Made by a program: the position numbers and the translations under genes. Under the pieces are notes generated by a model. It did no database searches and was not told the DNA's origin. It saw nothing but the letters and a program-made list of their open reading frames with translations. A stretch of 64,000 nt of DNA from positions 13,998 through 77,997 of the forward strand of contig CAYWVO010000006.1 of NCBI GenBank assembly GCA_964461835.1, read 5' to 3'. The DNA is from an uncultured Ignavibacteria bacterium (GTDB lineage Bacteria; Zixibacteria; MSB-5A5; WJJR01; JAJRUJ01). Each line of letters begins with the position of its first letter. The first letter of the stretch is position 1. Shown piece after piece: positions 3,811-48,663 of this stretch.

Positions 3811-3893
3811 TCAACTGGCCCTATCTGCACGAAAGTGCCCCAGGGTTTCCAGGAAACGATTGCATTCAGCGAAATTATCGTGCTCGTCATTGT

Positions 3894-3918
3894 GTGCGCG
3901 GCAGGTCTCCAACCTGCC
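3894..3918 (+). repeat. Family-A hairpin repeat, copy A1 (GTGCGCGGCAGG-loop-CCTGCC)
   Basis: gtgcgcggcaggtctccaacctgcc. Related copies are listed below. Confidence 0.8.
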
Positions 3919-3950
3919 GGCTCGACGGAAAGAAACAGAATCATCCTCTT

Positions 3951-3975
3951 GTGCGCGGCAGGTCTTTAACCTGCC
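3951..3975 (+). repeat. Family-A hairpin repeat, copy A2
   Basis: gtgcgcggcaggtctttaacctgcc, a tandem neighbour of A1. Confidence 0.8.
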
Positions 3976-4080
3976 CGTCTCATGGAATTAGCGGCATCAT
4001 CCCATAGTGCCACCCGCTTCCGATCCCCACGACAAGCATAAATTACCGACGTTTCGAGAATGACAGAACGGGATAGAACG

Positions 4081-4105
4081 GGCAGACGAGACGTCTGCCG
4101 CGCAC
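4081..4105 (-). repeat. Family-A hairpin repeat, copy A3 in inverted orientation
   Basis: ggcagacgagacgtctgccgcgcac. The stem sequence differs from A1/A2 but still pairs. Confidence 0.75.
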
Positions 4106-4299
4106 AAAACCTACCCTCCCGAGGCTGGGCCGGCGACGCTCATTGGCAGATGGCCCACCACGAAAGGAATTATGCAGCAATTCTCGTAATGGTGGGGGTA
4201 GAAAGATTATAGCTACAGGACAGCAGCTGCTATCCCATCACTCCCGGATTTCATCCCTGAAATCCTTCCGTGGTGGGCCGCCCATCATTAGGTAAACAA

Positions 4300-4536
4300 T
4301 CAGCCTTTGGTCGAGCCCGGCGGGAGCAATTGCTGGAGTGCATCAGGAAGTTTACCGGGGAAATCTCGGTTGGCGACACCCCGGGCCTTGCGATAGGAAT
4401 CATCATTGACCGCCACCGGTTGCGCCGAACCGGTGTGCCGGGCGATGATCCGCTCGACTTTGCCTTTGTCATTATCCCGCAGTGCGTCAGCGAGTTCCTG
4501 GAATACTGGGCCGGTCAGCGGGCCAGGTGGATGCAT
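4300..4536 (-). CDS. Hypothetical small protein of 78 aa
   Basis: An AAGGAGGG Shine-Dalgarno sits 4 nt upstream of the ATG. The ORF is embedded in a repeat-rich intergenic region. No recognisable domain. Confidence 0.3.
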   Translation of the reverse strand: MHPPGPLTGPVFQELADALRDNDKGKVERIIARHTGSAQPVAVNDDSYRKARGVANRDFPGKLPDALQQLLPPGSTKG

Positions 4537-4667
4537 AAACCCTCCTTAGGTTCGGTTTCGTTCTGATTGAGTCTACGTGTTGCTGCTACGGGGTGCAAGC
4601 GGAAAAGGCGGGGGGTCAATCACGAATGAAACACGCTCGAACACAAAAGCTGGCACACAGGCTGGCG

Positions 4668-4716
4668 TGGCCCTGATCTGAGGGTGAGCGGCTGCGAACC
4701 CGGAGATCAGGGTTTC
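4668..4716 (+). repeat. Family-E-like hairpin repeat, copy E3 (GGCCCTGATCT…AGATCAGGGTTTCC)
   Basis: An 8-bp inverted repeat with a 24-nt loop. Shares the GGCCCTGA / TCAGGGTTTC arms with E1 and E2. Confidence 0.6.
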
Positions 4717-4762
4717 CAGGAGCGACCGGATTTGGCACCAGAGGGCATCGCACCTAGAAACC

Positions 4763-4792
4763 CTGACGAACGTCAGGCCCACCCTCCCCCAA
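4763..4792 (-). repeat. Family-E hairpin repeat, copy E1 (revcomp of GGGTGGCCCTGACGTTCGTCAGGGTTTCT)
   Basis: Matches 58412-58443 in the opposite orientation. Has an 8-bp stem CCCTGACG / CGTCAGGG. Confidence 0.75.
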
Positions 4793-4830
4793 AATGGATC
4801 CCGGCTCAAGGCCGGGATGACACGTCGGGG
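4785..4830 (-). repeat. Family-C hairpin repeat, copy C1 (TGTCATCCCGGC-CTTGA-GCCGGGATCCATTTTGGGG)
   Basis: ccccaaaatggatcccggctcaaggccgggatgacacg. Lies downstream of the minus-strand qmoC-like gene. Confidence 0.85.
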
Positions 4831-4853
4831 TGAGTCGGTCTAATTGCCGCAGA

Positions 4854-4888
4854 ACGGGCAGACGTGCAGCCTGCCGGGCACAATTCGC
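4854..4888 (-). repeat. Family-A hairpin repeat, copy A4, degenerate
   Basis: The revcomp reads TGTGCCCGGCAGGCTGCACGTCTGCCCGTTC. Confidence 0.55.
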
Positions 4889-4906
4889 TATATACCAAAA
4901 CAACCC

Positions 4907-4945
4907 CAAACCAAGTCCCGCCAGGGCGGGAAAGTTTGGGGTTGC
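4907..4945 (+). repeat. Family-B repeat, copy B1 (hairpin CCCGCC-AGGG-CGGG followed by GGTTGCCACCC)
   Basis: caagtcccgccagggcgggaaagtttggggttgccaccc. Confidence 0.7.
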
Positions 4946-5006
4946 CACCCATGTTCCATAAAAAAGCCGGTGCACGAGGACGTACCCCGGCCACAGATCT
5001 CATTGT

Positions 5007-5039
5007 CCGGGCAGGCTAAAGGCCTGCCGCGCACACATC
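5007..5039 (-). repeat. Family-A hairpin repeat, copy A5, abutting the stop codon of the qmoC-like gene
   Basis: The revcomp reads ggatgtgtgcgcggcaggcctttagcctgcccgg. Confidence 0.8.
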
Positions 5040-6218
5040 CTACGCCGTGCGCATCTCCCGACCAACCTGCTTGGCGTGGACAATCGCCAGCGTGCGGTAA
5101 ATCATATGCGCAAACTTCGAGTAGGGCATATACCACAACAGGAAAAACACGAACACCAAATGCGCGAAATAGTTGGCATAGGCGACCATCGGCAGCCCGG
5201 TGTACCGCAATAGCCAGGAAAGCATCCCGGTCAGACCCGTTAAGAACATTATGTAGATAAACAAGTAATCGGCGTAGCCGTTGGCGCCGACTTCATCCTT
5301 GTTCTGCCAGCGACGGACGATCAACCAGGTGCTGCCCACCAGCAGGGCAATTCCGCTGAGCGCACCCAGGATTTTCACCGGGTGCGGCGGTTCGATTGGT
5401 ACCTGGAAAAACGAATCCAGCGTTTCAATCCCGAACCAGGTGTGGAGATAATGCGGCAAGAATACGAACAAGAGCACCAAGCCGGTGGTGATCATCGCTC
5501 CGATAAACCCAAAAAACAAAATCATGTGGGCCTTGGCGCGGGGTTTGTTGGTTGTGCATTTGTTGAACTTGGTGTGGGTGAAAATCTCCTTCATCGTCGC
5601 CACAAATGCGGGCACAAACCCCATATTTACCTGCCCGACATCCCGATTGAGCGCGTCCCAGAACCTCTTGAACGCAACCGCAGCGAAGATGAAGATCAGG
5701 ACGTTGCCGAATACAAAGAGTGCATCCACCGTGCTGTGCGGCATAAAAATATTGTAATCGATCGCCGCCTCCGTCATGAACAGATACTCCCCGTCCACCT
5801 GGGGCGCTGAGAGAACGATACTCCCCAAAATGATCAGAATCGGTACCAAAAAGAGCACCGGCAGCGCTTTCGGCGTGGCCAGCGCCTTCCCCATGAATTT
5901 AGGGAACGAATAGTTTTCATAGATATAGGTGCGGATCGCTGCAAGCACATCCCCCGGCCGCGCGCCCCGCGGGCAGTAGGTCGTGCAATCATTGCATTGA
6001 TGGCACAGCCAGACATCCGGGTCGGCGATCAGGCGGTCTTTCTGACCCCAGCCGGCCCAGAGCATCTCTTTGCGCGGGAACGGCCTGTCCTCCGGTGAGA
6101 GATTGCAGACGACCGAGCAGGTCGCACACTGGTAGCATTTTTTCAGTGTCTCGCCCCCATTGCGGCGGACACTGCGAATAAATTCTACATCGGGTTGAAT
6201 CGTTTGGACTTCCGCCAT
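5040..6218 (-). CDS. qmoC: Membrane-bound FeS/heme-b oxidoreductase, QmoC-like. It fuses an HdrC-like 2x[4Fe-4S] ferredoxin domain to an HdrE/NarI-like transmembrane domain.
   Basis: Has two CxxCxxCxxxCP motifs (CYQCATCSVVC…P and CHQCNDCTTYCP). These are followed by roughly 6 TM helices containing conserved His. Length 392 aa. A GAGGAGAG RBS precedes the start. The gene is divergent from sat-aprBA. Confidence 0.65.
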   Translation of the reverse strand: MAEVQTIQPDVEFIRSVRRNGGETLKKCYQCATCSVVCNLSPEDRPFPRKEMLWAGWGQKDRLIADPDVWLCHQCNDCTTYCPRGARPGDVLAAIRTYIYENYSFPKFMGKALATPKALPVLFLVPILIILGSIVLSAPQVDGEYLFMTEAAIDYNIFMPHSTVDALFVFGNVLIFIFAAVAFKRFWDALNRDVGQVNMGFVPAFVATMKEIFTHTKFNKCTTNKPRAKAHMILFFGFIGAMITTGLVLLFVFLPHYLHTWFGIETLDSFFQVPIEPPHPVKILGALSGIALLVGSTWLIVRRWQNKDEVGANGYADYLFIYIMFLTGLTGMLSWLLRYTGLPMVAYANYFAHLVFVFFLLWYMPYSKFAHMIYRTLAIVHAKQVGREMRTA

Positions 6219-6901
6219 TGGTCTCTCCTCGTTGTGTCCCGAAGACCAGTCGCTGTGTCGGTGGTGCCGTTTCGTCGTGCGTATTCTTCCCCGCCGACCT
6301 CTAGTAAAATTATAGACCGGAGCAGGAGTTCAGTCAACGATGATGTTAACAATTTCACAAATACCCCTCAATCATTGTCAACTCTCACGCCGTTATTGAT
6401 ACGGTTTTCAGCCCCCCCGTTTCTCACTTAACAAGATTACAACGGTGTACAGGAATGGAAATTGCTTAGTTATTCGCCGCGCAAATGTGAACCAGTTACT
6501 CATTGCCAAACAACGAGATATGCGTGCACATGAATTAAGCGGGCCCCTTGAGTGTGTTCCAAGAATGAGTTCGCTGTTAGATCAATGAATACCGTTCTCA
6601 ATAATAATTCATAACGTTATATTCAGCAGCAAGTTATAGTTAATGACCATTAAACGGATTGGGAAGACACTATCATTATGGCAAAACATGATGTTTTTGA
6701 CGAATAACTCTGACAATTCCTTGGGAAACATGACTATAATTAACTAAATTTCGGAACAAAAAAGGTCGAGTTTCAGTACAGAAAACAGGCATGAATCATG
6801 GGATTACCTAATCGCAAAAAGTGAGGATGTGGGGCCGGAATCAGTCGAGATAATAATTCCGGAATTTGTGAATATAATAACATGTTTTTGACATCTGCGC
6901 C

Positions 6902-6931
6902 TTGACACTACCCGCGCCGTTTCGTAGGTAT
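6902..6931 (+). promoter_or_regulatory. Putative sigma70-type promoter for sat-aprBA: TTGACA, a 17-bp spacer, then TAGGTAT
   Basis: TTGACActacccgcgccgtttcgTAGGTAT lies about 140 nt upstream of the sat ATG. A second TTGACA sits 14 nt further upstream. The region is AT-rich. Confidence 0.3.
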
Positions 6932-7070
6932 TTGCGGGCAGTTAAGGCAGTCGGGCTCAGGAAAGGAACCGGGCACTTCTAACAGCAAACAATCAGGATC
7001 GGGCACGATTGCAAGACGGATTACGACAAGAAATCATGGTGTTATCATTTAATCCCTCAAGGGAGTAGCA

Positions 7071-8297
7071 ATGCCAGCCTCAACACTCATCAGCCCCCAC
7101 GGGGCGGAAGAACTAAAGATTCTCCTGCTGGACGGGCAGGAACGCGACGCAGAATTGAAGCGCGCGGAAGGACTCCCCAAACTGGTGATGTCCTCGCGGG
7201 AAACCGGTGACCTCATTATGATGGGGATCGGCGGATTTACGCCGCTTGACGGTTTCATGGGTAAGGACGACTGGAAAGGTGTCTGCGCCGACATGAAAAT
7301 GGCCAACGGAACGTTTTGGCCGATTCCGATCACTCTCTCCCATGACGAAAAGGTCGACCCCGGGACGGAATTTTGCCTGGTCTCCGGTGAGACCAACGAA
7401 ATCATGGGCACGATGAAGGTGACCGACTGCTACGAGATCGACAAGGAATTCGAATGCAAAAATGTCTTCACCACTACCGACAGCGAACACCCGGGGGTGA
7501 AGATGGTGATGTCCCAGAAGAAATATAACTTGGGCGGACCGGTGAAAGTGGTTTCGGAAAGTTACTTCCCGAAAGAATTTCCGGATCTGTATCAACGTCC
7601 AGCCGAAAGCCGCAAGACCTTCGAGGAACGCGGCTGGAAGACAATTGCCGCGCTGCAATTGCGTAACCCGATGCACCGTTCGCATGAGTATCTGGCCAAG
7701 ATCGCGTTGGAAGTTTCTGACGGCATTTACATCCACCAGCTCGTGGGGAAATTGAAACCCGGTGATATTCCGGCGGAAGTCCGGGTCAAGTGCATTAACA
7801 CACTTGTGGAAAACTACTTTGTCAAAGAGCGGGTGCTCACCGGCGGGTACCCGCTGGATATGCGTTACGCCGGCCCGCGGGAAGGTCTTCTGCACGCCGT
7901 GTTCCGCCAGAACTTCGGCTGCTCCCACATGATCATCGGTCGCGATCATGCCGGGGTGGGCGATTACTATGGCCCGTTCGATGCCCAGAATATTTTCCAG
8001 GAGCTCTGGGATGGCGCCCTGCAATGCCAGATCCTGCCGATCGACTGGACTTTCTATTGCCACAAGTGCGACGGTATGGCCTCGATGAAGACCTGCCCGC
8101 ATGGCAAAGAAGATCGGTTGTTCCTCTCTGGTACGGCATTGCGCAAGGCACTCTCGGAAGGCGGCGAGGTACCGGACGAGTTCAGTCGGAAGGAAGTCCT
8201 GGCAATCCTGCGCGATTATTACGCGGGGCTCAAGGACGAGGACAGAGTTGAAGTCAAAATGCATAAGGCCGCCACGGGCGATTCGGGGAAAAAGTAA
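7071..8297 (+). CDS. sat: Sulfate adenylyltransferase (ATP sulfurylase)
   Basis: Has the [11 protein letters not shown] and GRDHAGVG motifs. Length 408 aa. An AGGGAG RBS precedes the start. Confidence 0.95.
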
Positions 8298-8328
8298 ATG
8301 AGGATATCAACATAAATGGAGGTAACGC

Positions 8329-8763
8329 ATGCCTAGCTTTGTGATTCCGGACAAATGTGACGGCTGTAAGGCGCTCGATAAAACCGCCTGTCAGTACATT
8401 TGCCCGAATGATCTGATGGTCCTGAATAAGGACATCATGAAGGCGTACAACTGGGAACCCGAGATGTGCTGGGAATGTTACAACTGCGTGAAGATTTGCC
8501 CGACCCAGGCCATTGAAGTTCGCGGGTATGCCGACTTTGTGCCGATGGGCGCAGCAGTCACCCCGATGCGGAGTTCCGACTCGATCATGTGGACGGTGAA
8601 GTTCCGCAACGGCACGTTGAAACGCTTCAAATTCCCAATCCGCACCACTCCGGAAGGCGCCGCAGTACCGGACGGCGGATATGGGGCCGGGACCGACGAT
8701 CTCGACAGCCCGCATCTGTTCACCGAACCGGCATCGGTCGAAACCGATTTCCAGGAGAAGTAG
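8329..8763 (+). CDS. aprB: Adenylylsulfate (APS) reductase beta subunit
   Basis: Has the N-terminal 2x[4Fe-4S] pattern CDGCK…CQYICP…CWECYNCVKICP and the characteristic C-terminal tail. Length 144 aa. Confidence 0.95.
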   Translation: MPSFVIPDKCDGCKALDKTACQYICPNDLMVLNKDIMKAYNWEPEMCWECYNCVKICPTQAIEVRGYADFVPMGAAVTPMRSSDSIMWTVKFRNGTLKRFKFPIRTTPEGAAVPDGGYGAGTDDLDSPHLFTEPASVETDFQEK

Positions 8764-8777
8764 GAGGTTGAACGAAC

Positions 8778-10661
8778 ATGGCGAATTTCGAAACTGTGGA
8801 AGTCTCAACCGACCTGCTGATTGTCGGTGGAGGCATGGCGGCCTGCGGTGCGGCGGTGGAAGCTGCGCACTGGGCCAAAAAGAACGACCTGAAGGTCGCG
8901 CTCGTCGACAAGGCGGCGATGGACCGTTCCGGTGCGGTCGCGATGGGTCTCTCGGCGATCAACCAGTACGTTGACCTGAAGTCCGGTAACAACACAGTCA
9001 AGGATTATGTGGATTATGTCCGCAACGACTTGATGGGTATCACCAGGGAAGACCTCGTGGCCAATATCGCCCGGCACGTCGATTCGACGGTGCACCTCTT
9101 TGAAAAATGGGGTCTGCCGATCTGGAAGGACGAGCAGGGCAATTATGTGCACGAAGGTCGCTGGCAGCTGATGATCAACGGCGAATCCTACAAAGTCGTC
9201 GTGGCGGAAGCGGCCAAGAACGCGCTTGGCACCGACAATATTTACGAGCGTGTCTTCATTGTCGGCCCGATCATGTGTGGTGACAAGTGCGGTGGCGCGG
9301 TCGGATTCTCGGTGCGCGAAAACAAGTTCTACGTCTTCAAGTCTCGGGCTACGCTGGTTGCCCTCGGCGGCGCGGTGCACGTATTCAAGCCGCGGTCGGC
9401 TGGTGAAGGTCTGGGGCGCGCCTGGTATCCGCCGTGGAACTCGGGTTCCTCGGCTTACTTCACCTTGAAGGCCGGCGCTGAGATGACCTGTCAGGAAGTC
9501 CGGTTTATCCCGGTCCGCTTTAAGGACGCGTACGGTCCGGTTGGGGCCTGGTTCCTCTTGTTTAAGTCCCGCGCGACCAATGCCAAGGGTGAAGCCTACA
9601 TGGAGACCCGCCGCCCCGAACTCGAAAACTGGGCGCCGTACGGGAAGGTGAAACCGATTCCGGCAAACCTGCGTAACTGGCTGGGTATGCTGGATATCAT
9701 GGAAGGTCTCGGCCCGATCTACATGCGGACCGAGGAAGCGATTAAGAAGATCGCCGACGAATCGCCCGACGAAAAGGCCTACAAGAAGAAAATGAAAGAA
9801 CTTGAGGCCGAGGCGTGGGAAGACTTCCTGGATATGACCATCTCCCAGGCGATTCTCTGGGCGGCTACCAACACCGCTCCGGAAGAGAAACCGTCCGAAA
9901 TCGCCGCCGCGGAACCGTACTTCATCGGCTCCCACTCCGGCGCCTCGGGTGCGTGGGTCTCTGGTCCGGAAGACTTGCAGAACGACAAGACCAAGAGCGA
10001 CTACTTCTGGGGTTACGTGAACATGGCTACCGTGCCGGGGATCTTCTGCGCGGGTGACGCCTCCGGCGCCTCCAGCCACAAGTTCTCCTCCGGTTCGCAC
10101 GCCGAAGGTCGTATCGCAGCAAAGGGCGCGATTCAGTACCTCGTGAAAGAAAATCCGTCCCTGACTTACGACGATGCGGCGATCGAGAAGATGAAAGAAG
10201 AAATCCTGAAGCCGCTCGACCTGTTTGAACAGCACAAGGCCAGCTCCAGTGATCCGGACATCAATCCGAATTACATGAAGCCGAAGATGTTCATGTTCCG
10301 CCTGCAGAAGATTATGGACGAATACGCGGGCGGCGTGACGGCGCAGTTCACCACCAGCCAGTCCAACCTGGAAAAGGCGCTGGAACTGCTCGCGTTCCTG
10401 AAAGAAGACTCCGAGCATCTCGCAGCGTCCGACCTGCACGAACTGATGCGCTGCTGGGAAAATGTTCACCGGATGTGGCAGGCCGAAGCGCACGTGCGCA
10501 CGATTATGTTCCGCGAGGAGACTCGCTGGCCGGGCTACTACTTCCGCTCTGACACCCCGAAGATCAATGAAGACTGGAGAGTCTTCGTCAACTGCAAAGT
10601 AGATCCGAGTTCCGGTGAGTGGGAAATGATCAAGCGCCCGATTCACACCATTTATGAATAA
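8778..10661 (+). CDS. aprA: Adenylylsulfate (APS) reductase alpha subunit, a flavoprotein
   Basis: Has the FAD-binding N-terminus LIVGGGMAACGAA. Length 627 aa. An AGGAGG RBS precedes the start. Lies immediately after aprB. Confidence 0.95.
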   Translation: MANFETVEVSTDLLIVGGGMAACGAAVEAAHWAKKNDLKVALVDKAAMDRSGAVAMGLSAINQYVDLKSGNNTVKDYVDYVRNDLMGITREDLVANIARHVDSTVHLFEKWGLPIWKDEQGNYVHEGRWQLMINGESYKVVVAEAAKNALGTDNIYERVFIVGPIMCGDKCGGAVGFSVRENKFYVFKSRATLVALGGAVHVFKPRSAGEGLGRAWYPPWNSGSSAYFTLKAGAEMTCQEVRFIPVRFKDAYGPVGAWFLLFKSRATNAKGEAYMETRRPELENWAPYGKVKPIPANLRNWLGMLDIMEGLGPIYMRTEEAIKKIADESPDEKAYKKKMKELEAEAWEDFLDMTISQAILWAATNTAPEEKPSEIAAAEPYFIGSHSGASGAWVSGPEDLQNDKTKSDYFWGYVNMATVPGIFCAGDASGASSHKFSSGSHAEGRIAAKGAIQYLVKENPSLTYDDAAIEKMKEEILKPLDLFEQHKASSSDPDINPNYMKPKMFMFRLQKIMDEYAGGVTAQFTTSQSNLEKALELLAFLKEDSEHLAASDLHELMRCWENVHRMWQAEAHVRTIMFREETRWPGYYFRSDTPKINEDWRVFVNCKVDPSSGEWEMIKRPIHTIYE

Positions 10662-10781
10662 TGGGTAATCGGAGCTGATCCGTTCCTGATTGTGTTTTGA
10701 CAGTCCCCCAGGCTCGTCCGGGCCTGGGGGACAAATTTTCCGATCCTCCCGGCGTACCAGCAGCGGAGGAGGATCGATGTG

Positions 10782-11063
10782 ATGACGACGATGACCGAAC
10801 TGAAGACTGAATGCTGCCCCTACTGTAATCAACCGATGAAGAAATGGTCGCCACCACCGGATTCCAGTTGGGGTGACCACTGGCAGTGGGTGTGCTTCAA
10901 CGACGAGTGTGAGTATTTTCGCAACGGGTGGAAGTGGATGAAAGACCGCTATAATGTCCGTGCCTCCTATCGCCATCGGAAACACCCGATTACCGGCGAA
11001 ACGGGTCCTCTGCCGGTGTGGTCGCTGACGGCGCTACGGGCAGATATCATCGACGAGGAGTAA
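10782..11063 (+). CDS. Small Cys-rich zinc-ribbon-like protein, hypothetical
   Basis: Has CCPYC … CFNDEC cysteine pairs. A GGAGGAGG RBS lies 9 nt upstream of the ATG. Co-oriented directly downstream of aprA. Confidence 0.5.
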   Translation: MTTMTELKTECCPYCNQPMKKWSPPPDSSWGDHWQWVCFNDECEYFRNGWKWMKDRYNVRASYRHRKHPITGETGPLPVWSLTALRADIIDEE

Positions 11064-11100
11064 CTGCTTGTCGTGAATTTCGGGGACGAGAGGTAATATC

Positions 11101-11931
11101 ATGCAGGAAGAAATGAACAAGCTTAAAGAGGATATTCTGAAGAATTACCCCCGATTGCAAAAGAAAGACGTCTTTCAGTTTGCCTGTCATAAAGGCGTGC
11201 CGTGCTTTAATGACTGTTGTAGTGATGTGAATATCTTTTTGACTCCGTATGATATTATCTGCCTGAAGAACCATCTGGGTATCACCTCCGGTGAATTCTT
11301 GGAGAAATACACGGTCTCCCCGTTTGGGAAGAAGCAGAAGTACCCGGTGCGGCTGCTGAAGATGACGGAAACCGAAGATAAAAAATGCCCATTTGTCACC
11401 GATGAAGGTTGTAGGGTTTATTCCGACCGCCCCTGGTCCTGCCGCATGTATCCACTCGGGTTAGCCTCACCCAAAGAGGGCTCACCGGAATCGGAGGACT
11501 TTTACTTTTTGATGAAAGAACAGGTCTGCAAAGGATTTGAAGAGAAGCAGGAGCAGACCATCGAGGAGTGGCTGGAGGATCAGGGGATCAACGCCTATGA
11601 TGAAATGGGGCGGTTGTACAAAGAGGTCACCCTGCATGAGTTCTTTGAAGAGGACAAGGAGCTGACTCCTCCGAAGATGGAGATGTTCCATCTGGTGTGC
11701 TATGATATTGATACGTTCCGTAAATTTGTCTTCGAAAGCTCGTTTTTAGGGAAATTTGAGGTCGACGACCAGACGCTGGCGAAAATGAAAGAGTCGGACG
11801 TTGAGCTTTTCAAGTTTGGCGTACTGTGGCTGAAATTCGCGTTGTTCGGCGAGAAAACCATGAAGGTGAAGGACGAAGTCCGTGCCGCCAAGGAGCGCGA
11901 AATCCGCAACCGCATGACCCCGCGGGGATAA
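11101..11931 (+). CDS. YkgJ/UPF0153 family protein with a putative Zn/Fe-chelating CxxCxxCC domain
   Basis: Has CHKGVPCFNDCC and, downstream, KKCPF…GCRVYSDRPWSCRMYP, the typical YkgJ family signature. Length 276 aa. Confidence 0.7.
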   Translation: MQEEMNKLKEDILKNYPRLQKKDVFQFACHKGVPCFNDCCSDVNIFLTPYDIICLKNHLGITSGEFLEKYTVSPFGKKQKYPVRLLKMTETEDKKCPFVTDEGCRVYSDRPWSCRMYPLGLASPKEGSPESEDFYFLMKEQVCKGFEEKQEQTIEEWLEDQGINAYDEMGRLYKEVTLHEFFEEDKELTPPKMEMFHLVCYDIDTFRKFVFESSFLGKFEVDDQTLAKMKESDVELFKFGVLWLKFALFGEKTMKVKDEVRAAKEREIRNRMTPRG

Positions 11932-12018: not shown

Positions 12019-13455
12019 TTAGCCCGTTTCATCTGGTGTGTAATAGTTAGTTGGAAAGTGTTTCAAATTGTAAATTGCAAAATCATGGAGTAATATCTGC
12101 TTCCAGTTAATTGGGAATATTTTTAACGGTTGTAATCTATCCAGATATACTGGATCTATTCTAAGCATAGTTTCTCTTCCCCGAGCCCCCCCTATCAGGA
12201 GATTTATCCTCTCAATGCCGAATTCGGTTTCCAAGATTTCCTTGATCTTAGTTGCGAATTCGTCTGCCCCAGTGCTAAAACTCAGAGCAATCCTCAGATG
12301 TCCTGTGCCCCCTGTGCGATCTGTAGGACTAATTCGGCTCCGCACGTCTGCGTAACCTCTAACAAAACTCATTATAACATTCCTATCCACTGTATCAGCG
12401 ATCAGATCAGGGATAATTGGCACCACCCCGCGGCGAGTAATTTGCAAGGAGGATAAATAATCATTAACGGCACATAAGACTGCTGAAGATCCATTAAATC
12501 TAATCCTGATCTTATAATCATAATCAGATACTTTTTGCACCGACGCCCTGTCGCCGGAATCTATTCTATCGAAGTACTCATTTAGAGAATCGCGAATCCC
12601 ATTTACGTCTTTTCGGAAAGCCTTAGCCTGGTCCATTCGGAAGCTCGTAATTCCATCGGCGAGGATGATGCCTTCATTCTCAGTACCCCGGTTAAATACG
12701 CCTTTGTGGTAAATGATTTCTAATAACCTATCATGCACCAATGTCCCCCCGGCGGCTATAAGACCCAAAAGGTATGCTATGTCTGCATTGGGGATAACCT
12801 GCATTGCCTCTATAGCGGCCTGGAATAGACTGTCTAACTCGTTCCTATGAGTAGCCTGCAGTCGTTGAACAAGAGGCGTATCTCCTCCTTGCTCATTGAA
12901 GAACCGCTCATATTGTTCGATAATTGCATAATGGTTTTCGGGCTTAATGGCGCAGGGTGAAGCCCAGATGGCTTCCACCTCTTCTTTCGTACTTCTCAGT
13001 ACACGATCTCTTGAGACGCCTTCAAGGAAGACATTTGCTTCCAGATTATGGGTTATTCCAGAAACAGTCAAATTGGAAGAGCCGATTATAACTTTCAAGG
13101 CAGAAGACTTTCTGAATAAATATATCTTAGAGTGTAATAGTCTTTTGCACTTTTCGTTCACTACTTTCTCTGATCTGTAAAATACTCTGCATTGTGAATT
13201 ACCGGGGATGGTAGCCAATTCCTCGATGATTTGTGGTTCCGTGAAGAACCGCTCTATGTCGAACACAACACGAAGTCTTCCACCCCTTCGCAAAAAAGAA
13301 ACAATATCTTCCCTGAATAGTTCAAATGCATTATACCTGGCAAAAGCAACTAGGAAGAAAATATCATCTGCCCAACGGAGACAATCCCGAATCTGTGACT
13401 CTAATTGTTTTCTTTCGGTGGTCAGAAGGTAAGCTTCCATTTGTTCAACAATCAA
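12019..13455 (-). CDS. PLD-superfamily (HKD-like) nuclease, the putative restriction endonuclease of a Type II R-M pair. Its C-terminal roughly 280-aa domain is uncharacterised.
   Basis: Has the partial HKD signature LHSKIYLF…IIGSSNLT near residue 110. It overlaps the upstream methyltransferase gene by 4 bp. GC is low, about 40-45%. Confidence 0.65.
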   Translation of the reverse strand: MIVEQMEAYLLTTERKQLESQIRDCLRWADDIFFLVAFARYNAFELFREDIVSFLRRGGRLRVVFDIERFFTEPQIIEELATIPGNSQCRVFYRSEKVVNEKCKRLLHSKIYLFRKSSALKVIIGSSNLTVSGITHNLEANVFLEGVSRDRVLRSTKEEVEAIWASPCAIKPENHYAIIEQYERFFNEQGGDTPLVQRLQATHRNELDSLFQAAIEAMQVIPNADIAYLLGLIAAGGTLVHDRLLEIIYHKGVFNRGTENEGIILADGITSFRMDQAKAFRKDVNGIRDSLNEYFDRIDSGDRASVQKVSDYDYKIRIRFNGSSAVLCAVNDYLSSLQITRRGVVPIIPDLIADTVDRNVIMSFVRGYADVRSRISPTDRTGGTGHLRIALSFSTGADEFATKIKEILETEFGIERINLLIGGARGRETMLRIDPVYLDRLQPLKIFPINWKQILLHDFAIYNLKHFPTNYYTPDETG

Positions 13456-14282
13456 TCTCGTTTCCGAAAGATCAAGATGAATTCGTGGACTTTGTTAACC
13501 CTGAATACGCTTGGATACCCCAAAGGCCGCAAATTGTTGTATTCTTGCTTTCTATTCCAGATAATAATATCATCCAATGCAAACCCAATATCTGCCATCA
13601 TCGCCTGAATATCCATATGCAACGGATAACATTTATCCCCTTTTCGAATATCCATCACGATTACACAACAGTACCCATTTGGTTGGGTTGCACGATAGAC
13701 TAGTTCGAAGATTTCCCTAAGTTGTGCAAAGAAATCGGAGTAATCTGTTACGTTTCCAAGGTCACTCGGGGTGTTTCCGTAGTTTCTCCGGTTCTTTCCA
13801 TCAGCCGTACGTTTTTGATTGAGAATATCCCAATATGGCGGTGAGGTTATGGTTAACCTCACCGAATTGGGTTCGACATATTTCGCTAGATTTCTTGCGT
13901 CTGCACGTTTCATTTTCGCGAGAGCACTGTCAATGGTGTTGAATATATCCGTCTGTTGTAATCGTCTTTTGTATAAATCGATAAATGCCGGACTTAATTC
14001 AATTCCCAGACTGCGCCTATCTAATGCAGATGCTGCCAACAAAGTGGACCCGCTTCCGGCAAAAGGATCTAAAACCAGGTCGGATTCGTGGCTAAAAATC
14101 TCAATCAAACGGCTACACAGCATTGTGGGAAACATTGCAGGGTGATTGAGCTTCAACTCCTGCGGTGATTTTCTTATGTCATCCCAAACTGAAACGGAGT
14201 ACTTTAGCCAGGTCCTTCCATCCAACCCTATTGTGTTCTTTGTGGATAATCCCATCATGCAAACTCCTAAACCACTTGCCAT
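13452..14282 (-). CDS. DNA methyltransferase, N4-cytosine or N6-adenine, with gamma-type motif order
   Basis: Motif I/X is HPAMFP…VLDPFAGSGST. It is followed by SPPYWD (motif IV). Length 276 aa. GC is low. Confidence 0.85.
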   Translation of the reverse strand: MASGLGVCMMGLSTKNTIGLDGRTWLKYSVSVWDDIRKSPQELKLNHPAMFPTMLCSRLIEIFSHESDLVLDPFAGSGSTLLAASALDRRSLGIELSPAFIDLYKRRLQQTDIFNTIDSALAKMKRADARNLAKYVEPNSVRLTITSPPYWDILNQKRTADGKNRRNYGNTPSDLGNVTDYSDFFAQLREIFELVYRATQPNGYCCVIVMDIRKGDKCYPLHMDIQAMMADIGFALDDIIIWNRKQEYNNLRPLGYPSVFRVNKVHEFILIFRKRD

Positions 14283-14600
14283 GCTCAGCCGGACAAAAAT
14301 ACGTAAATAGGTGTGCGTTTGGAAATCATATTTTATCTTACTGGGGAAAAGAATTGCAACTGTCTCTCCTTATTGAGGTTAGGGGCCCGCAAATCTATTT
14401 CCGTAAATCGAGACTTTGGTTTGATCCACTGTAACTGATTACGTGGTTTCGACAAACGCAAAATTGGACCCGATTACTTCTCAGCATTCCTGGAGGGCGA
14501 GCCACCCGATTCTTTCACAAGAAGGTTGGTTCTCCCCAGAATTTCCCTGCGCCGGCGCCGGCCAACTCGTATGGTATTTGATATATGTGGGGGGTCACCG

Positions 14601-15059
14601 ATGAAAAATGATCTGACATATCGTGAAGTCCAGCCGGTTGAGTTTCCTAACCTGTTCAAACTATTGATCACCGAAGCACCGGAATTTGTCGAGACCGCCA
14701 TCCAAGTCCTCGATGCCGACGAAGAGCAATTTTATGAGATGTTCACGAACGAGGGCAAGGTCATCGCTATCGAATATCAGGGACGGCTTGCCGGATACTA
14801 CTGGATTGACGAAAACGGCGATACGTTCCATCTGCACGCGCTGGTGCTCAGACCGGAATTTCAAAACCGTGGTATCGGCAGTTATGTGATGAACGTGGTG
14901 GAAGACGCAACCGGCAAACATTTCAAGCGTATTGACGTTGGATTCAACGCCTCCAACCGTCGTGCCCGGGCATTTCTCGAACGGCACGGGTATCGCGTTG
15001 TCAAGGAAACACCCGACACGAATTATGTCTTCATGCAGAAGCCGCTGAACGAATCGTAG
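14601..15059 (+). CDS. GNAT family N-acetyltransferase
   Basis: Has the acetyl-CoA binding motif Q/RxxGxG/A (NRGIGSYVM). The ATG start sits inside the longer ORF called at 14526. Confidence 0.8.
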   Translation: MKNDLTYREVQPVEFPNLFKLLITEAPEFVETAIQVLDADEEQFYEMFTNEGKVIAIEYQGRLAGYYWIDENGDTFHLHALVLRPEFQNRGIGSYVMNVVEDATGKHFKRIDVGFNASNRRARAFLERHGYRVVKETPDTNYVFMQKPLNES

Positions 15060-15078
15060 ACACTGCAATTTAATTTGG

Positions 15079-15135
15079 AGGGTGGCAACCCCAAATGAAG
15101 CCGCCTCCGGCGGACCAAGTTTCGGTTGCAACCCG
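15079..15135 (-). repeat. Family-B repeat, copy B2 in inverted orientation (GGTTGCAACC…GTCCGCCGGAGGCGG…GGGTTGCCACCC)
   Basis: gggtggcaaccccaaatgaagccgcctccggcggaccaagtttcggttgcaacccg. Confidence 0.75.
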
Positions 15136-15212
15136 ATATCATCTACTGTGTCATAGAATACGATTTGCCTTTTACAGCTGATCGTTCCTGCCCCCTTGCT
15201 GCGCAAGGGTAA

Positions 15213-15248
15213 TGGGATCCCGGCTCAAGGCCGGGATGACACGTGGGG
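15213..15248 (-). repeat. Family-C hairpin repeat, copy C2
   Basis: gggatcccggctcaaggccgggatgacacgtgggg. Confidence 0.85.
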
Positions 15249-15342
15249 TAGCGGTACTAATTCTGCAGGATGGGCAGACCAGGAGAGGCAGTCACACAAA
15301 CCGCTTGTAAGGTAGTTCGGGTTCCGAAGAACGCAGAGCATT

Positions 15343-15426
15343 ACGAGAAACCCGACATTTGTAATCCGTTGTGGTAGTGTCGGGTTTCTCCGCGCGCTGA
15401 CGCGCACCTCGGAACGCCGACCTACT
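15343..15426 (+). repeat. Family-D repeat, copy D1 (TGTCGGGTTTCTCCGCGCGCTGACGCGCACCTCGGAAC). It includes a 13-bp inverted repeat GAGAAACCCGACA / TGTCGGGTTTCTC.
   Basis: A second copy lies at 21872-21923, with substitutions in the CGCGCG…CGCAC region. Confidence 0.75.
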
Positions 15427-15537
15427 GCAAATTCGACCCCATGACATTTGTCAACAGGCCCATCTGTCCGGGCCACGCTCGGTCTGCTAGCTCAGAGGTA
15501 AAGCCGGATCATACTGTTGCAATACGACATCAACCCC

Positions 15538-15583
15538 AAACTCGTTCCGCCGCAGGCGGACTAAATTTGAGGTTGCCACCCGC
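15538..15583 (+). repeat. Family-B repeat, copy B3
   Basis: gttccgccgcaggcggactaaatttgaggttgccaccc. Confidence 0.7.
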
Positions 15584-15599
15584 TGCTTGTGGCGGAACG

Positions 15600-15628
15600 G
15601 GCAGGTTCAAGACCTGCCGCGCACAAAA
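15600..15628 (-). repeat. Family-A hairpin repeat, copy A6, abutting the stop of the minus-strand lipoprotein gene
   Basis: ggcaggttcaagacctgccgcgcacaaaa. Confidence 0.8.
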
Positions 15629-16510
15629 TCACGGGCACTCGACGTCATTCTGGCTTTCATCCCAGCAGCGCCAGTTGTTGTCCCCGTAGAAATGCGGGTC
15701 CCTGATTCGACCATCTCCATCAATATGGTGCCACTCAATCTCGACCAGGTTCGCATTCGGCACGTTGTACAAGTTGTAGAACCGGTCGTATTCGTTGTCA
15801 GTGGTCGAGCCGTAGGAGATATAGCCGCCGTTGTTTGGGTTTTCCGGGATAACGTTGGTGTATTTCAAAGTCCCGGTATCGGCGGCGTCATCGTAGGTCC
15901 ATTCAATCGCCAAAAACGGCCTGGGGTCGGTTGGGGAGTGGTTCAAGTTCCAACTACCGGCTGATCGGTCCAGCTGACTGATACCGGTATACCATTCAAA
16001 ATCGGTGTACTCACTCTCCTTACTGATGGTCATGATCCAGAATACCTGATCACCGTCCACCCGACCATTCAACACTGCGCTGTGCTCCACGCCACCGGCG
16101 GTGAAGCTATACGCCCAGTTCCAGGAATTATCCTCCGGCTGCCACACCGGGTCCTGGCCGAATGCCGCTACAAACGAGGCAGCGGGGACGATCAGCGCCA
16201 GATTGAGGAGTGCATCCCAGATCCCGATCTGAAAAGCGGCACGAAACCAATAATCCTTGGTCTCTGATTGAGTTCTTTTGCCAAATAGCGGGCTAACCCC
16301 GTCGCCCCGATCGAAATCGTCAAAGTTCATGACGAATGACGATTGCGGCGGCAGGGGCGGTGCCTCTTCCGCTGGGCCGGTGGGATCATCGTCACTGCAC
16401 CCAACAAACAGCAGGGAAAACGCCATAAATGAGGCGAGGATCCCCAACCAACGATGCCGTCGCATATTTCTCATCTGGTTTCTCCTCTCAATGTATTGAT
16501 CCGTCTGCAT
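15629..16510 (-). CDS. Hypothetical secreted lipoprotein
   Basis: Has a signal peptide with the lipobox LLFVGCSDD. No recognisable domain. The true start is probably an internal Met (MRNMRRHRW…). Confidence 0.5.
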   Translation of the reverse strand: MQTDQYIERRNQMRNMRRHRWLGILASFMAFSLLFVGCSDDDPTGPAEEAPPLPPQSSFVMNFDDFDRGDGVSPLFGKRTQSETKDYWFRAAFQIGIWDALLNLALIVPAASFVAAFGQDPVWQPEDNSWNWAYSFTAGGVEHSAVLNGRVDGDQVFWIMTISKESEYTDFEWYTGISQLDRSAGSWNLNHSPTDPRPFLAIEWTYDDAADTGTLKYTNVIPENPNNGGYISYGSTTDNEYDRFYNLYNVPNANLVEIEWHHIDGDGRIRDPHFYGDNNWRCWDESQNDVECP

Positions 16511-21826: not shown

Positions 21827-21871
21827 CGAGTCGGTATAACGGCTCTTGGCGCACAGGGAGCAGCCGTACCG

Positions 21872-21923
21872 GGTAGGATGATGTCGGGTTTCTCCGCGCG
21901 TTGACACGCACGTCGGAACCCGG
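21872..21923 (+). repeat. Family-D repeat, copy D2
   Basis: atgtcgggtttctccgcgcgttgacacgcacgtcggaacccggcctaca. Confidence 0.75.
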
Positions 21924-22083
21924 CCTACATCACAAGCTTGCGGGACGGTGTCGAGACGCCTGCCGCGCATAAAATAGACCGGGTCGTGGTGTAAGTCGGC
22001 ACGCTTTTTTATCCTTACCAAACGGGATATATTTTGCTATATCTTTTTTGGGCGGGGTAACGGTCGGAGCGGAGCCTAATAGT

Positions 22084-22961
22084 ATGCAGGACTTTCTTGC
22101 CCAACTCGATGAATTCGCCACAGTGAAACTCTTCGAGATTAACCAGATGCCCATCACCGTTTCCTCAGTCGTGATGTTCCTGGTGATGCTGGGAGCGTTT
22201 TATATTTTCTCCAAGTTGATTATCCGTAATATCCTGCGTCGGGTCCTCCCCCGCTTCGACATCGAACCCGGAACGCAATTTAATTCCGCCGGATCACGCA
22301 TTATGCCATCATGATCACCGGAACGATTATCTCGTTCCGGTTTGTCGGGATTGATCTGAGCGGCCTGGCAGTGATCTTTGGGTTGTTGTCGGTGGGTATT
22401 GGGTTTGGGCTGCAAAATGTGACCTCGAATTTTGTAGCCGGATTGATTCTCTTGTTCGAGCGGCCAATCAGTGTCGGTGATCGCATCACGGTGGGCAATG
22501 AAGAGGGCGACGTGACTGCAATCAATATGCGTTCGACATCGATTCGCACACTGAGCAATATCACTGTGATAATTCCGAATTCAGAGTTTGTCTCGGCGCA
22601 TGTGGTCAACTGGTCGCACGGGGACCCCAAAGTCCGGCTGGAAATTCCGGTCGGCGTCTCCTATAGCTCAGATTTGGACACCGTGATCAAAGCCCTGGAA
22701 GAAGTGGCTTCCGAACATCCTGAAGTTCTCAAGGCACCCAAATCGGACGTGCTGTTGCGGAAATTCGGAGATTCATCCTGGAATATGGAACTACGGGCCT
22801 GGATTTCCGATCCCAAGCGTCACCCGGTGATCACCTCGGAACTCAATTGCGCGATCGTACGCAAATTCCGCAAGTACGGTGTCGAGATTCCGTTCCCGCA
22901 GCGCGATCTGCATGTGCGCTCGCCGTTGCCGGTACCGCTGTCATCGTCGCCGGAAAATTGA
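22084..22961 (+). pseudogene. MscS-family mechanosensitive channel interrupted by a frameshift near 22279-22286
   Basis: ORF 22048-22314 encodes TM1 and the linker. ORF 22311-22961 continues in a different frame with the GIGFGLQN pore helix and cytoplasmic domain. The frames can be joined by a 1-nt indel in the caatttaatt run. Confidence 0.6.
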
Positions 22962-48359: not shown

Positions 48360-48663
48360 CGTATCCTCCCCGAAGTTTCCGGCATGATTGTCACCCGGCA
48401 ATGAGACTATTTCAATATCCTGAACGCGCAAGATACCGAATTCGAACCGGAAATTCCAATGCCGGGAGCAGTTGGGTGACAATACTTAGGAAGAGTGTTG
48501 AAAAAAAGCGGTAATGTCAGATTTGTGGTAGGTCGGTGTTCCGAGTCCGGGCCGCCGTGGCGGACCAAACGAGAAACCCGAAACCAACCCAACGATTTAC
48601 AAATGTCGGGTTTTTCGGTATGCTGCGCATTCCTCGGAACCCGACCTATGAAAGGCTGGTATC

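Follow-up and report, generated by a model that had tools for sequence, protein, structure and literature searches.

What are the repeated hairpins that fill the DNA behind a QmoC-like gene: intrinsic terminators, elements of the 3′ untranslated region (3′-UTR), or insertions of repetitive DNA? The span in question (4785-5039) lies within the 503-nt gap (4537-5039) that follows the QmoC-like gene 5040..6218 on the minus strand of the window, by which we mean the whole 64,000-nt stretch of DNA that was analysed. A preliminary description had taken the orientation of these repeats, said to follow that of the upstream gene, as the signature of a terminator or 3′-UTR element. We conclude that the region is probably a mosaic cluster of REP (repetitive extragenic palindromic) elements, of the class represented by the BIMEs of E. 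coli and the NIMEs of Neisseria, that its repeats are not terminators, and that the orientation rule is mostly a counting artefact.

The locus behind the QmoC-like gene

The product of 5040..6218 carries Fer4 and NarI-like domains and its homologues are QmoC proteins, which bear the names GN15, Zixibacteria or Latescibacteria; a T9SS sorting domain is also present in the window, and it is on these names and this domain that the host's resemblance to an FCB-group candidate lineage is based. Along the minus strand, the TAG stop codon of this gene is followed by a family A hairpin, a terminator, a family D hairpin, a second copy of family A, family C, family B and finally unique DNA:

5010..5035, minus strand: family A REP-like hairpin, TGTGCGCG GCAGGC CTTTA GCCTGCC; starts 4 nt past the QmoC-like TAG stop, with its stem 11 nt past
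4992->4965, minus strand: canonical intrinsic terminator of the QmoC-like gene, GGCCGGGGUACGUCCUCGUGCACCGGC then UUUUUUAU; U6, dG -18.1 kcal/mol; outside all repeat families
4901..4950, minus strand: family D long hairpin, GGGTGGCAACCCCAAAC...GTTTGGGGTTG, then TTTTGG
4857..4882, minus strand: family A copy, its hybrid stem containing a single minus-strand G-U pair; first unit of an A->C->B composite
4787..4822, minus strand: family C, a CGTC-type REP, TGTC ATCCCGGC CTTGA GCCGGGAT CCA, then TTTTGGGG
4756..4784, minus strand: family B hairpin GGGTGGGCCTGACGTTCGTCAGGGTTTCT, directly 3′ of C

About 220 nt of unique DNA separate family B from the Shine-Dalgarno site and ATG (4536) of a 78-aa orphan ORF (4300..4536, minus strand). 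The Shine-Dalgarno site is strong (AAGGAGG), the coding score is 0.079 per codon versus 0.194 +/- 0.05 for the genes of the window, and a database search matched only the ORF itself on its own contig, with no other homologue. The ORF may be spurious, or it may be a young gene within the inserted repeat region, its DNA being absent from the closest relative.

Structure and distribution of the repeat families

The repeats are multi-copy elements that lie behind genes, carry compensatory changes in their hairpins and originated by insertion. The family A pattern TGTGCGCGGCAG-N9-CTGCC, searched with up to 3 mismatches, has 10 matches in the window against 0.28 expected by chance, and the family C 26-mer GTCAYCCCGGCCTTGAGCCGGGRTCC has 5 against 0.00 expected. 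A search by structure brought the C copies to six with the one at 62577-62602, whose stem covaries throughout; shuffled windows yield about 0.35 such hairpins each. In family A, whose hairpin has a 7-bp stem and a loop of 5 nt, 22 copies drawn from the window and metagenome contigs together are 98% paired, and 2 of the pairs show compensatory changes. Outside the QmoC-like locus, the copies are as follows:

3893..3918, plus strand: family A copy, 82 nt past a UbiA-family gene; convergent gap
3950..4106, both strands: inverted dimer of family A, with A(+) at 3950-3975 and the stem variant A*(-) at 4081-4106; tagged ends outward
15214..15300, minus strand: composite of degenerate A 15300->15265, C 15240->15214 and hairpin F 15209->15193; convergent gap
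15600..15625, minus strand: family A copy, starting 3 nt past the TGA stop of 15629..16510(-), with its stem 10 nt past
21945..21970, minus strand: degenerate family A copy, the sole anti-transcription copy in a tandem (+,+) gap
31725..31801, plus strand: composite A->C in the 1082-nt divergent gap 31175-32256
58277..58443, plus strand: composite A 58277-58302 -> C 58337-58363 -> B 58415-58443, after a Lon-like gene
58482..58567, plus strand: another A->C composite, with A at 58482-58507 and C at 58541-58567; a single plus-strand G-U pair in the C stem, no T-run in the C tail
62499..62624, plus strand: degenerate A (62499-62520), then a stem variant of C, ACCCCAGC GCAG GCTGGGGT (62577-62602), and hairpin F CCCTTGCGAAGCAAGGG, in one composite that follows a 1255-aa gene

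All six window copies of C have A, or an A-like hairpin, 16-56 nt upstream on the same strand, and a single longer unit has clearly been copied in the composites 4890->4780 and 15305->15200. Beside C, family A forms a further REP family, which in this genome usually stands head-to-tail before C in a composite of about 95 nt. A metagenome scan for family A returned 33 stretches with about 15 true copies, mostly symmetric dimers; in these unrelated metagenome contigs family A takes the form of inverted A/A* heterodimers with stems GGCAGGY/RCCTGCC and GGCAGAC/GTCTGCC, the same pair as at 3950(+)/4081(-) in the window. No Rfam family matched any of the repeats, at the gathering threshold or at an E-value threshold of 1, and a search for more copies via spurious ORFs reading across the composite gave no candidates.

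The gaps that hold A and C are also occupied by families B, D, E (a long hairpin with a GTAG/CTAC tag) and F (a small hairpin). In the divergent gap 31175-32256, the plus strand carries units D, D, A and C, and some 140 nt further downstream the minus strand carries a degenerate C, F and A facing them (31943-32040), an arrangement that looks like an inverted dimer of whole composites. Family E, GTCGGGTT...GAACCCGAC, ends in CTAC (GTAG on the other strand) and is found in inverted pairs, at 15313-15415, 48571-48648 and 21871-21935 and at L159:3472-3518; its tag indicates that a REP family of the GTAG type coexists with the CGTC type. The sequence GGGTAGGATG is present in two exact copies (21871-21880 and 58245-58254; about 0.1 expected by chance), 38-45 nt past stop codons at the starts of repeat clusters, and a variant, GCGTAGGATG, lies at 5036-5045, its TAG doubling as the QmoC-like stop codon. 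GGGTAGGATG may represent a tag of the GTAG type or a target for insertion; GTAGGATG motifs lie close to three cluster starts. Logan short-read contigs of the same organism end within repeats, at window positions 3975, 4796, 31776, 48619 and 58441, an assembly effect expected of high-copy repeats.

Family C as a CGTC-tagged REP

REPs of the CGTC-tagged superfamily carry a CGTC or TGTC tag (a CCTC variant is also found), an 8-9 bp stem whose first two positions are A/T, a 4-5 nt loop and a CCA tail, and have no dedicated transposase; they are multi-copy, lie between tandem or convergent ORFs near 3′ ends, and occur mainly as inverted dimers, head-to-tail dimers being negligible (Di Nocera, De Gregorio & Rocco 2013, BMC Genomics 14:522; PMC3733652). 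Five window copies of family C have the tag TGTC and the one at 58541 has CGTC. The stems (ATCCCGGC/GCCGGGAT, ACCCCGGC/GCCGGGGT, ATTCCGGC/GTCGGAAT and ACCCCAGC/GCTGGGGT) are of 8 bp with loops CTTGA or GCAG; their first pair is A-T in all copies and their second T-A in 4/6 and C-G in 2/6. The tail is CCA in five of the six copies and CCC at 15214, and the copies are distributed over three tandem gaps, one convergent gap and one divergent gap. The tendency to inverted dimers, which is not a strict criterion, is not seen in the window beyond one loose pair, 31767(+)/~31975(-), the other five C copies being singlets behind A. Judged by sequence and location, family C can be placed in the CGTC-tagged REP superfamily. 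It differs from the published members in standing as a singlet head-to-tail behind a different hairpin (A), in the extended tail of this lineage's subfamily (CCATTTTGGGG), and in its host, which resembles an FCB-group candidate lineage rather than a proteobacterium.

The exact 26-mer of family C was also found in at least 120 stretches of species-representative genomes (Sphingomonas, Devosia, Rhizobium, Ramlibacter and Polaromonas, with single records of Bacteroidota, Binatia and Paceibacterota). Among the matches listed, the foreign 26-mers usually form inverted pairs 50-110 nt apart, always in the order +,-; by our own gene caller, 51 of these listed matches fall in convergent gaps and 64 in tandem gaps, but only 5 in divergent gaps. 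No gene family enriched or shared beside C was found when sought in the 120 foreign loci listed. The identical 26-mer spans Alpha-, Beta-, Gamma- and Deltaproteobacteria, Bacteroidota, Binatia and Paceibacterota among the matches listed.

The window repeats resemble the REPs and BIMEs of E. coli in that short hairpins rich in GC are assembled into mosaic clusters within transcribed intergenic DNA on the 3′ side of genes. However, the sequences are unrelated: E. coli REPs have a GTAG tag, alternating orientation within BIMEs and a cognate RAYT, whereas each cluster here keeps to one direction and the window showed no RAYT. In Neisseria, NIMEs contain RS units of 50-150 bp. The NIME arrays of dRS3 (CGTC-1 according to Di Nocera et al.) are similar in that hairpins of the CGTC type are set with other units in larger intergenic mosaics, but the partner units in the window are hairpins A, B, D and F rather than RS units, and no role in phage integration is indicated.

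Do the hairpins terminate transcription?

Family C had been described as an intrinsic-terminator-like module, its hairpin being followed by a short U-run. The run exists at four copies (TCCATTTTGGGG exact at three and CCATTTTCCCC at a fourth) and is missing from two (15214 and 58541). For an intrinsic terminator we required a U-rich tract of at least five T in eight nucleotides, starting 0-2 nt after the stem. The tail of family C, CCAUUUUG (CCAUUUUGGGG), has four T in eight and its U-run begins 3 nt past the stem, CCA preceding the four U and leaving none in the three stem-proximal positions; the designation as a terminator-like module is not supported. Family A has no U-run in either orientation, and a terminator scan of the window called no copy of A or C. 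What the repeats have in common with intrinsic terminators is a stable GC-rich hairpin downstream of genes (dG -14.6 to -16.7 kcal/mol for C and about -15 kcal/mol for A), past the stop codon and with some U; where C differs is in the want of a stem-adjacent U tract. Hairpin energies are alike in both orientations (sense and antisense -14.6 and -16.7 kcal/mol for C, -15.3 and -14.9 kcal/mol for A). Among the matches listed, two of 149 foreign C copies have a terminator-grade tract (at least 5 T in 8), and 23% have at least 4 T.

Credible terminators, in which T accounts for 5-7 of the 8 nt past the stem, were identified in the window at 4992->4965, 18230->18207, 30421-30442 (bidirectional) and 63741->63714. 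The first of these, from which the C copy lies about 140 nt downstream on the minus strand, was missed by a simple scan because of one unpaired base in its stem, and had been overlooked in the preliminary description as well. An extra C-type copy just upstream of the window (L159:3365-3390), 38 nt past an ABC-transporter gene, has the tail CCATTTTTATG and does reach five T in eight. Given this copy, and CCATTTT in five of the seven C-type copies of this lineage (four of the six in the window), family C may exert a weak pausing or termination effect, although this is not the simplest reading. On a practical level, the repeats should be annotated as REP/BIME-like elements and not as terminators, and 4992->4965 as a genuine terminator.

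A possible role as 3′-UTR hairpins

Of the two readings offered for the repeats, terminator or 3′-UTR element, the former lacks support while the latter fits the data, the copies lying behind genes and their stems showing compensatory changes. It is also correct that two copies of A adjoin stop codons, starting 4 nt after that of 5040..6218 and 3 nt after that of 15629..16510, both on the minus strand. The REPs of E. coli act as barriers to 3′ exonucleases rather than as terminators. According to the work cited in PMC12306157, a gene in E. coli is translated less when such a copy lies no more than 15 nt past its stop codon. In the window only two A copies lie within that distance, 5010-5035 (stem at 11 nt) and 15600-15625 (stem at 10 nt). 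The predicted RNA fold of 4740-5045 is -154 kcal/mol (z -5.6) in the sense and -122 kcal/mol (z -3.2) in the antisense direction, a gain that is due to G/U-rich flanks. By analogy with E. coli, a role of the repeats as 3′-UTR hairpins is plausible.

Orientation relative to transcription

An element was scored as co-directional when the gene behind it lies on the element's own strand. Counted in this way, five of six C and nine of 11 A copies are co-directional, as originally reported (10/12 for A with the degenerate copy 15265-15300 added), but these tallies are mostly the product of gap type and of A-C linkage. In a convergent gap either orientation scores as co-directional, and in a divergent gap none can. 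Convergent gaps contain about one third of the copies scored as "co-directional", so that six hits are true by construction (A at 3893, 3950, 4081 and 15600, also 15265, and C at 15214); the gap 15060-15628 is convergent because 14526..15059(+) is a real GNAT gene. In the same way, 30473..31174(-) is a real PEP-CTERM gene, which makes the gap 31175-32256 divergent and the supposed exceptions at 31380-31810 false by construction. The preliminary suggestion was that these exceptions may mark unannotated transcripts. An unannotated plus-strand gene upstream of them was rejected, the candidate 30560..31225(+) being the shadow of the minus-strand PEP-CTERM gene and no credible small ORF being present. 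Furthermore, A and C are not independent, since C always has A 16-56 nt upstream and A 3950(+)/4081(-) is an inverted dimer. The apparent orientation rule thus derives mostly from convergent-gap copies and linked pairs of A and C.

The informative cases are the tandem gaps, in which co-directionality holds for 13 elements out of 14 (A 5/6, C 4/4, B 2/2, D 2/2). Collapsed into about 8 independent units, 7/8 are co-directional (p=0.035); taken by gap, four are co-directional and one is not (5 gaps, one-sided p=0.19). Should ORF 4300..4536 not be a gene, the gap 4537-5039 no longer qualifies as tandem and the informative units fall to 4/5. The claimed bias towards the orientation of the upstream gene therefore survives in the tandem gaps, in a small sample, as a residual polarity that is suggestive and under-powered. 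In the tandem gaps of the 120 foreign loci, generic CGTC hairpins show no polarity (51 co-directional, 59 anti), and a strand test of G-U versus A-C wobbles in the CGTC hairpins of these loci had 10 informative cases in tandem gaps, divided 4 to 6, which are too few. Within any one cluster of the window the units share one polarity, whereas classical BIMEs alternate. More generally, orientation statistics for intergenic repeats must drop convergent and divergent gaps and collapse linked units.

Origin and mobility

In the closest available relative, whose QmoC is 79% identical, the gap after qmoC is 73 nt, and none of the repeats was found when sought in 21 kb of that genome. The absence of the repeats from this relative identifies the cluster as a lineage-specific insertion. 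GTAG-class REPs are handled in single-stranded form by RAYT enzymes, relatives of the IS200/IS605 transposases, which target the lagging-strand template (PMC6006769). Neither A nor C has a GTAG tag at the 5′ end of its palindrome, as RAYT-mobilised REPs and REPINs do, GTAG/CTAC being confined to family E, and the window genes scanned yielded neither a Y1_Tnp nor any other transposase domain. With no mobilising enzyme found, mobility of the repeats is an inference only. Cumulative GC skew climbs overall across the window with no sustained reversal, while family A has 6 copies on the plus and 6 on the minus strand, switching with the local gene strand within 1-2 kb. A polarity linked to replication is rejected because both orientations alternate where the GC skew never durably reverses.

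Competing explanations

If the region is a mosaic REP cluster, its elements would have spread as selfish or semi-domesticated hairpin DNA and would persist where they do least harm, downstream of coding regions. Transcribed copies would add stable hairpins to the 3′-UTR, and the two A copies 3-4 nt past stop codons might hinder the ribosome at termination or shield the 3′ end, as shown for E. coli REPs, with termination at the QmoC-like locus left to the separate canonical terminator. Two features are mildly unusual for such a cluster, namely the head-to-tail A->C composites and a host resembling an FCB-group candidate lineage. A view of the repeats as neutral junk does not predict that 13/14 elements run with transcription, which is more uniform than the alternation of BIMEs. 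Alternatively, the polarity is real and the composites are directional RNA modules of the 3′-UTR, kept or inserted only where the transcript is the G/U-rich version, and serving as 3′ exonuclease blocks, modulators of ribosome release or processing sites. In favour of such modules are the co-directional majority in tandem gaps (13/14 elements, 7/8 collapsed units), the single polarity of each cluster, the advantage of about 32 kcal/mol in the folding of the sense over the antisense RNA, two stem wobbles (4857 and 58541) that are G-U on the sense strand, and two A copies that begin 3-4 nt past stop codons. We nevertheless regard this as possible but rather unlikely: the informative gaps number only 5 (4 to 1, p=0.19; 4/5 units if ORF 4300..4536 is no gene), the loop-closing pair at 58277 favours the antisense strand, foreign CGTC hairpins are without polarity (51 to 59) and their wobbles too few, copies are also present in the divergent gap 31175-32256, and the units D, second A, C and B behind the QmoC-like gene lie downstream of a strong terminator.

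The preliminary reading, in which the C hairpin and its short U-run form an intrinsic terminator module spread by repetition, can draw on a GC-rich stem of about -15 kcal/mol, on CCATTTT past the stem in 4/6 window copies and on the copy at L159:3365, whose tail CCATTTTTATG passes the simple 5-of-8 rule. It is very improbable in view of the four T in eight with C, C and A next to the stem and no scan call, the two copies with no T-run (15214 and 58541), the two of 149 listed foreign copies with at least 5 T, the canonical U6 terminator that precedes C behind the QmoC-like gene, the C copy in a divergent gap and the want of a U-run in family A. That orientation was set by replication, through single-strand transposition of the IS200/RAYT type into the lagging-strand template, with gene-strand bias mimicking a link to transcription, has a precedent in the processing of GTAG REPs by RAYT enzymes (PMC6006769). 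We find it scarcely credible here, as no Y1 transposase was found among the window genes scanned and the GC skew has no sustained reversal, yet family A is divided 6 plus to 6 minus. A more novel possibility is a transcription-polarised REP system, in which CGTC REPs have been recruited into head-to-tail A->C->B/F mosaics and acquire their polarity either by insertion into the displaced non-template strand or by selection for G/U-rich sense RNA, unlike the orientation-symmetric inverted dimers known so far; we consider it quite improbable. Were the residual polarity to hold genome-wide, a transcription-linked step in the spread or retention of REPs would be implied, and a true polarity would bear on how CGTC REPs, which have no known mobilising enzyme, are mobilised. 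For the present, a mosaic REP cluster with a plausible 3′-UTR role remains our preferred account.

Neighbouring genes

Three observations concern the genes around the clusters. An MscS-type channel appears to be split into two ORFs with a 4-nt overlap (22048..22314 and 22311..22961, plus strand), which could reflect a frameshift, an assembly error or genuine coupling. A low-GC island at 12019-14282 on the minus strand (0.42 versus about 0.55) encodes a restriction endonuclease of the PLD family (NgoFVII-like) and an N6/N4 DNA methylase, and is probably an acquired restriction-modification system, given its composition and these two genes. The QmoC-like gene itself belongs to a dissimilatory sulfur cluster (5040-11931), where it is divergent from sat-aprB-aprA, followed by genes for an Ogr/Delta-like zinc-finger protein and a CxxCxxCC protein, and this order is kept in a relative (L158).
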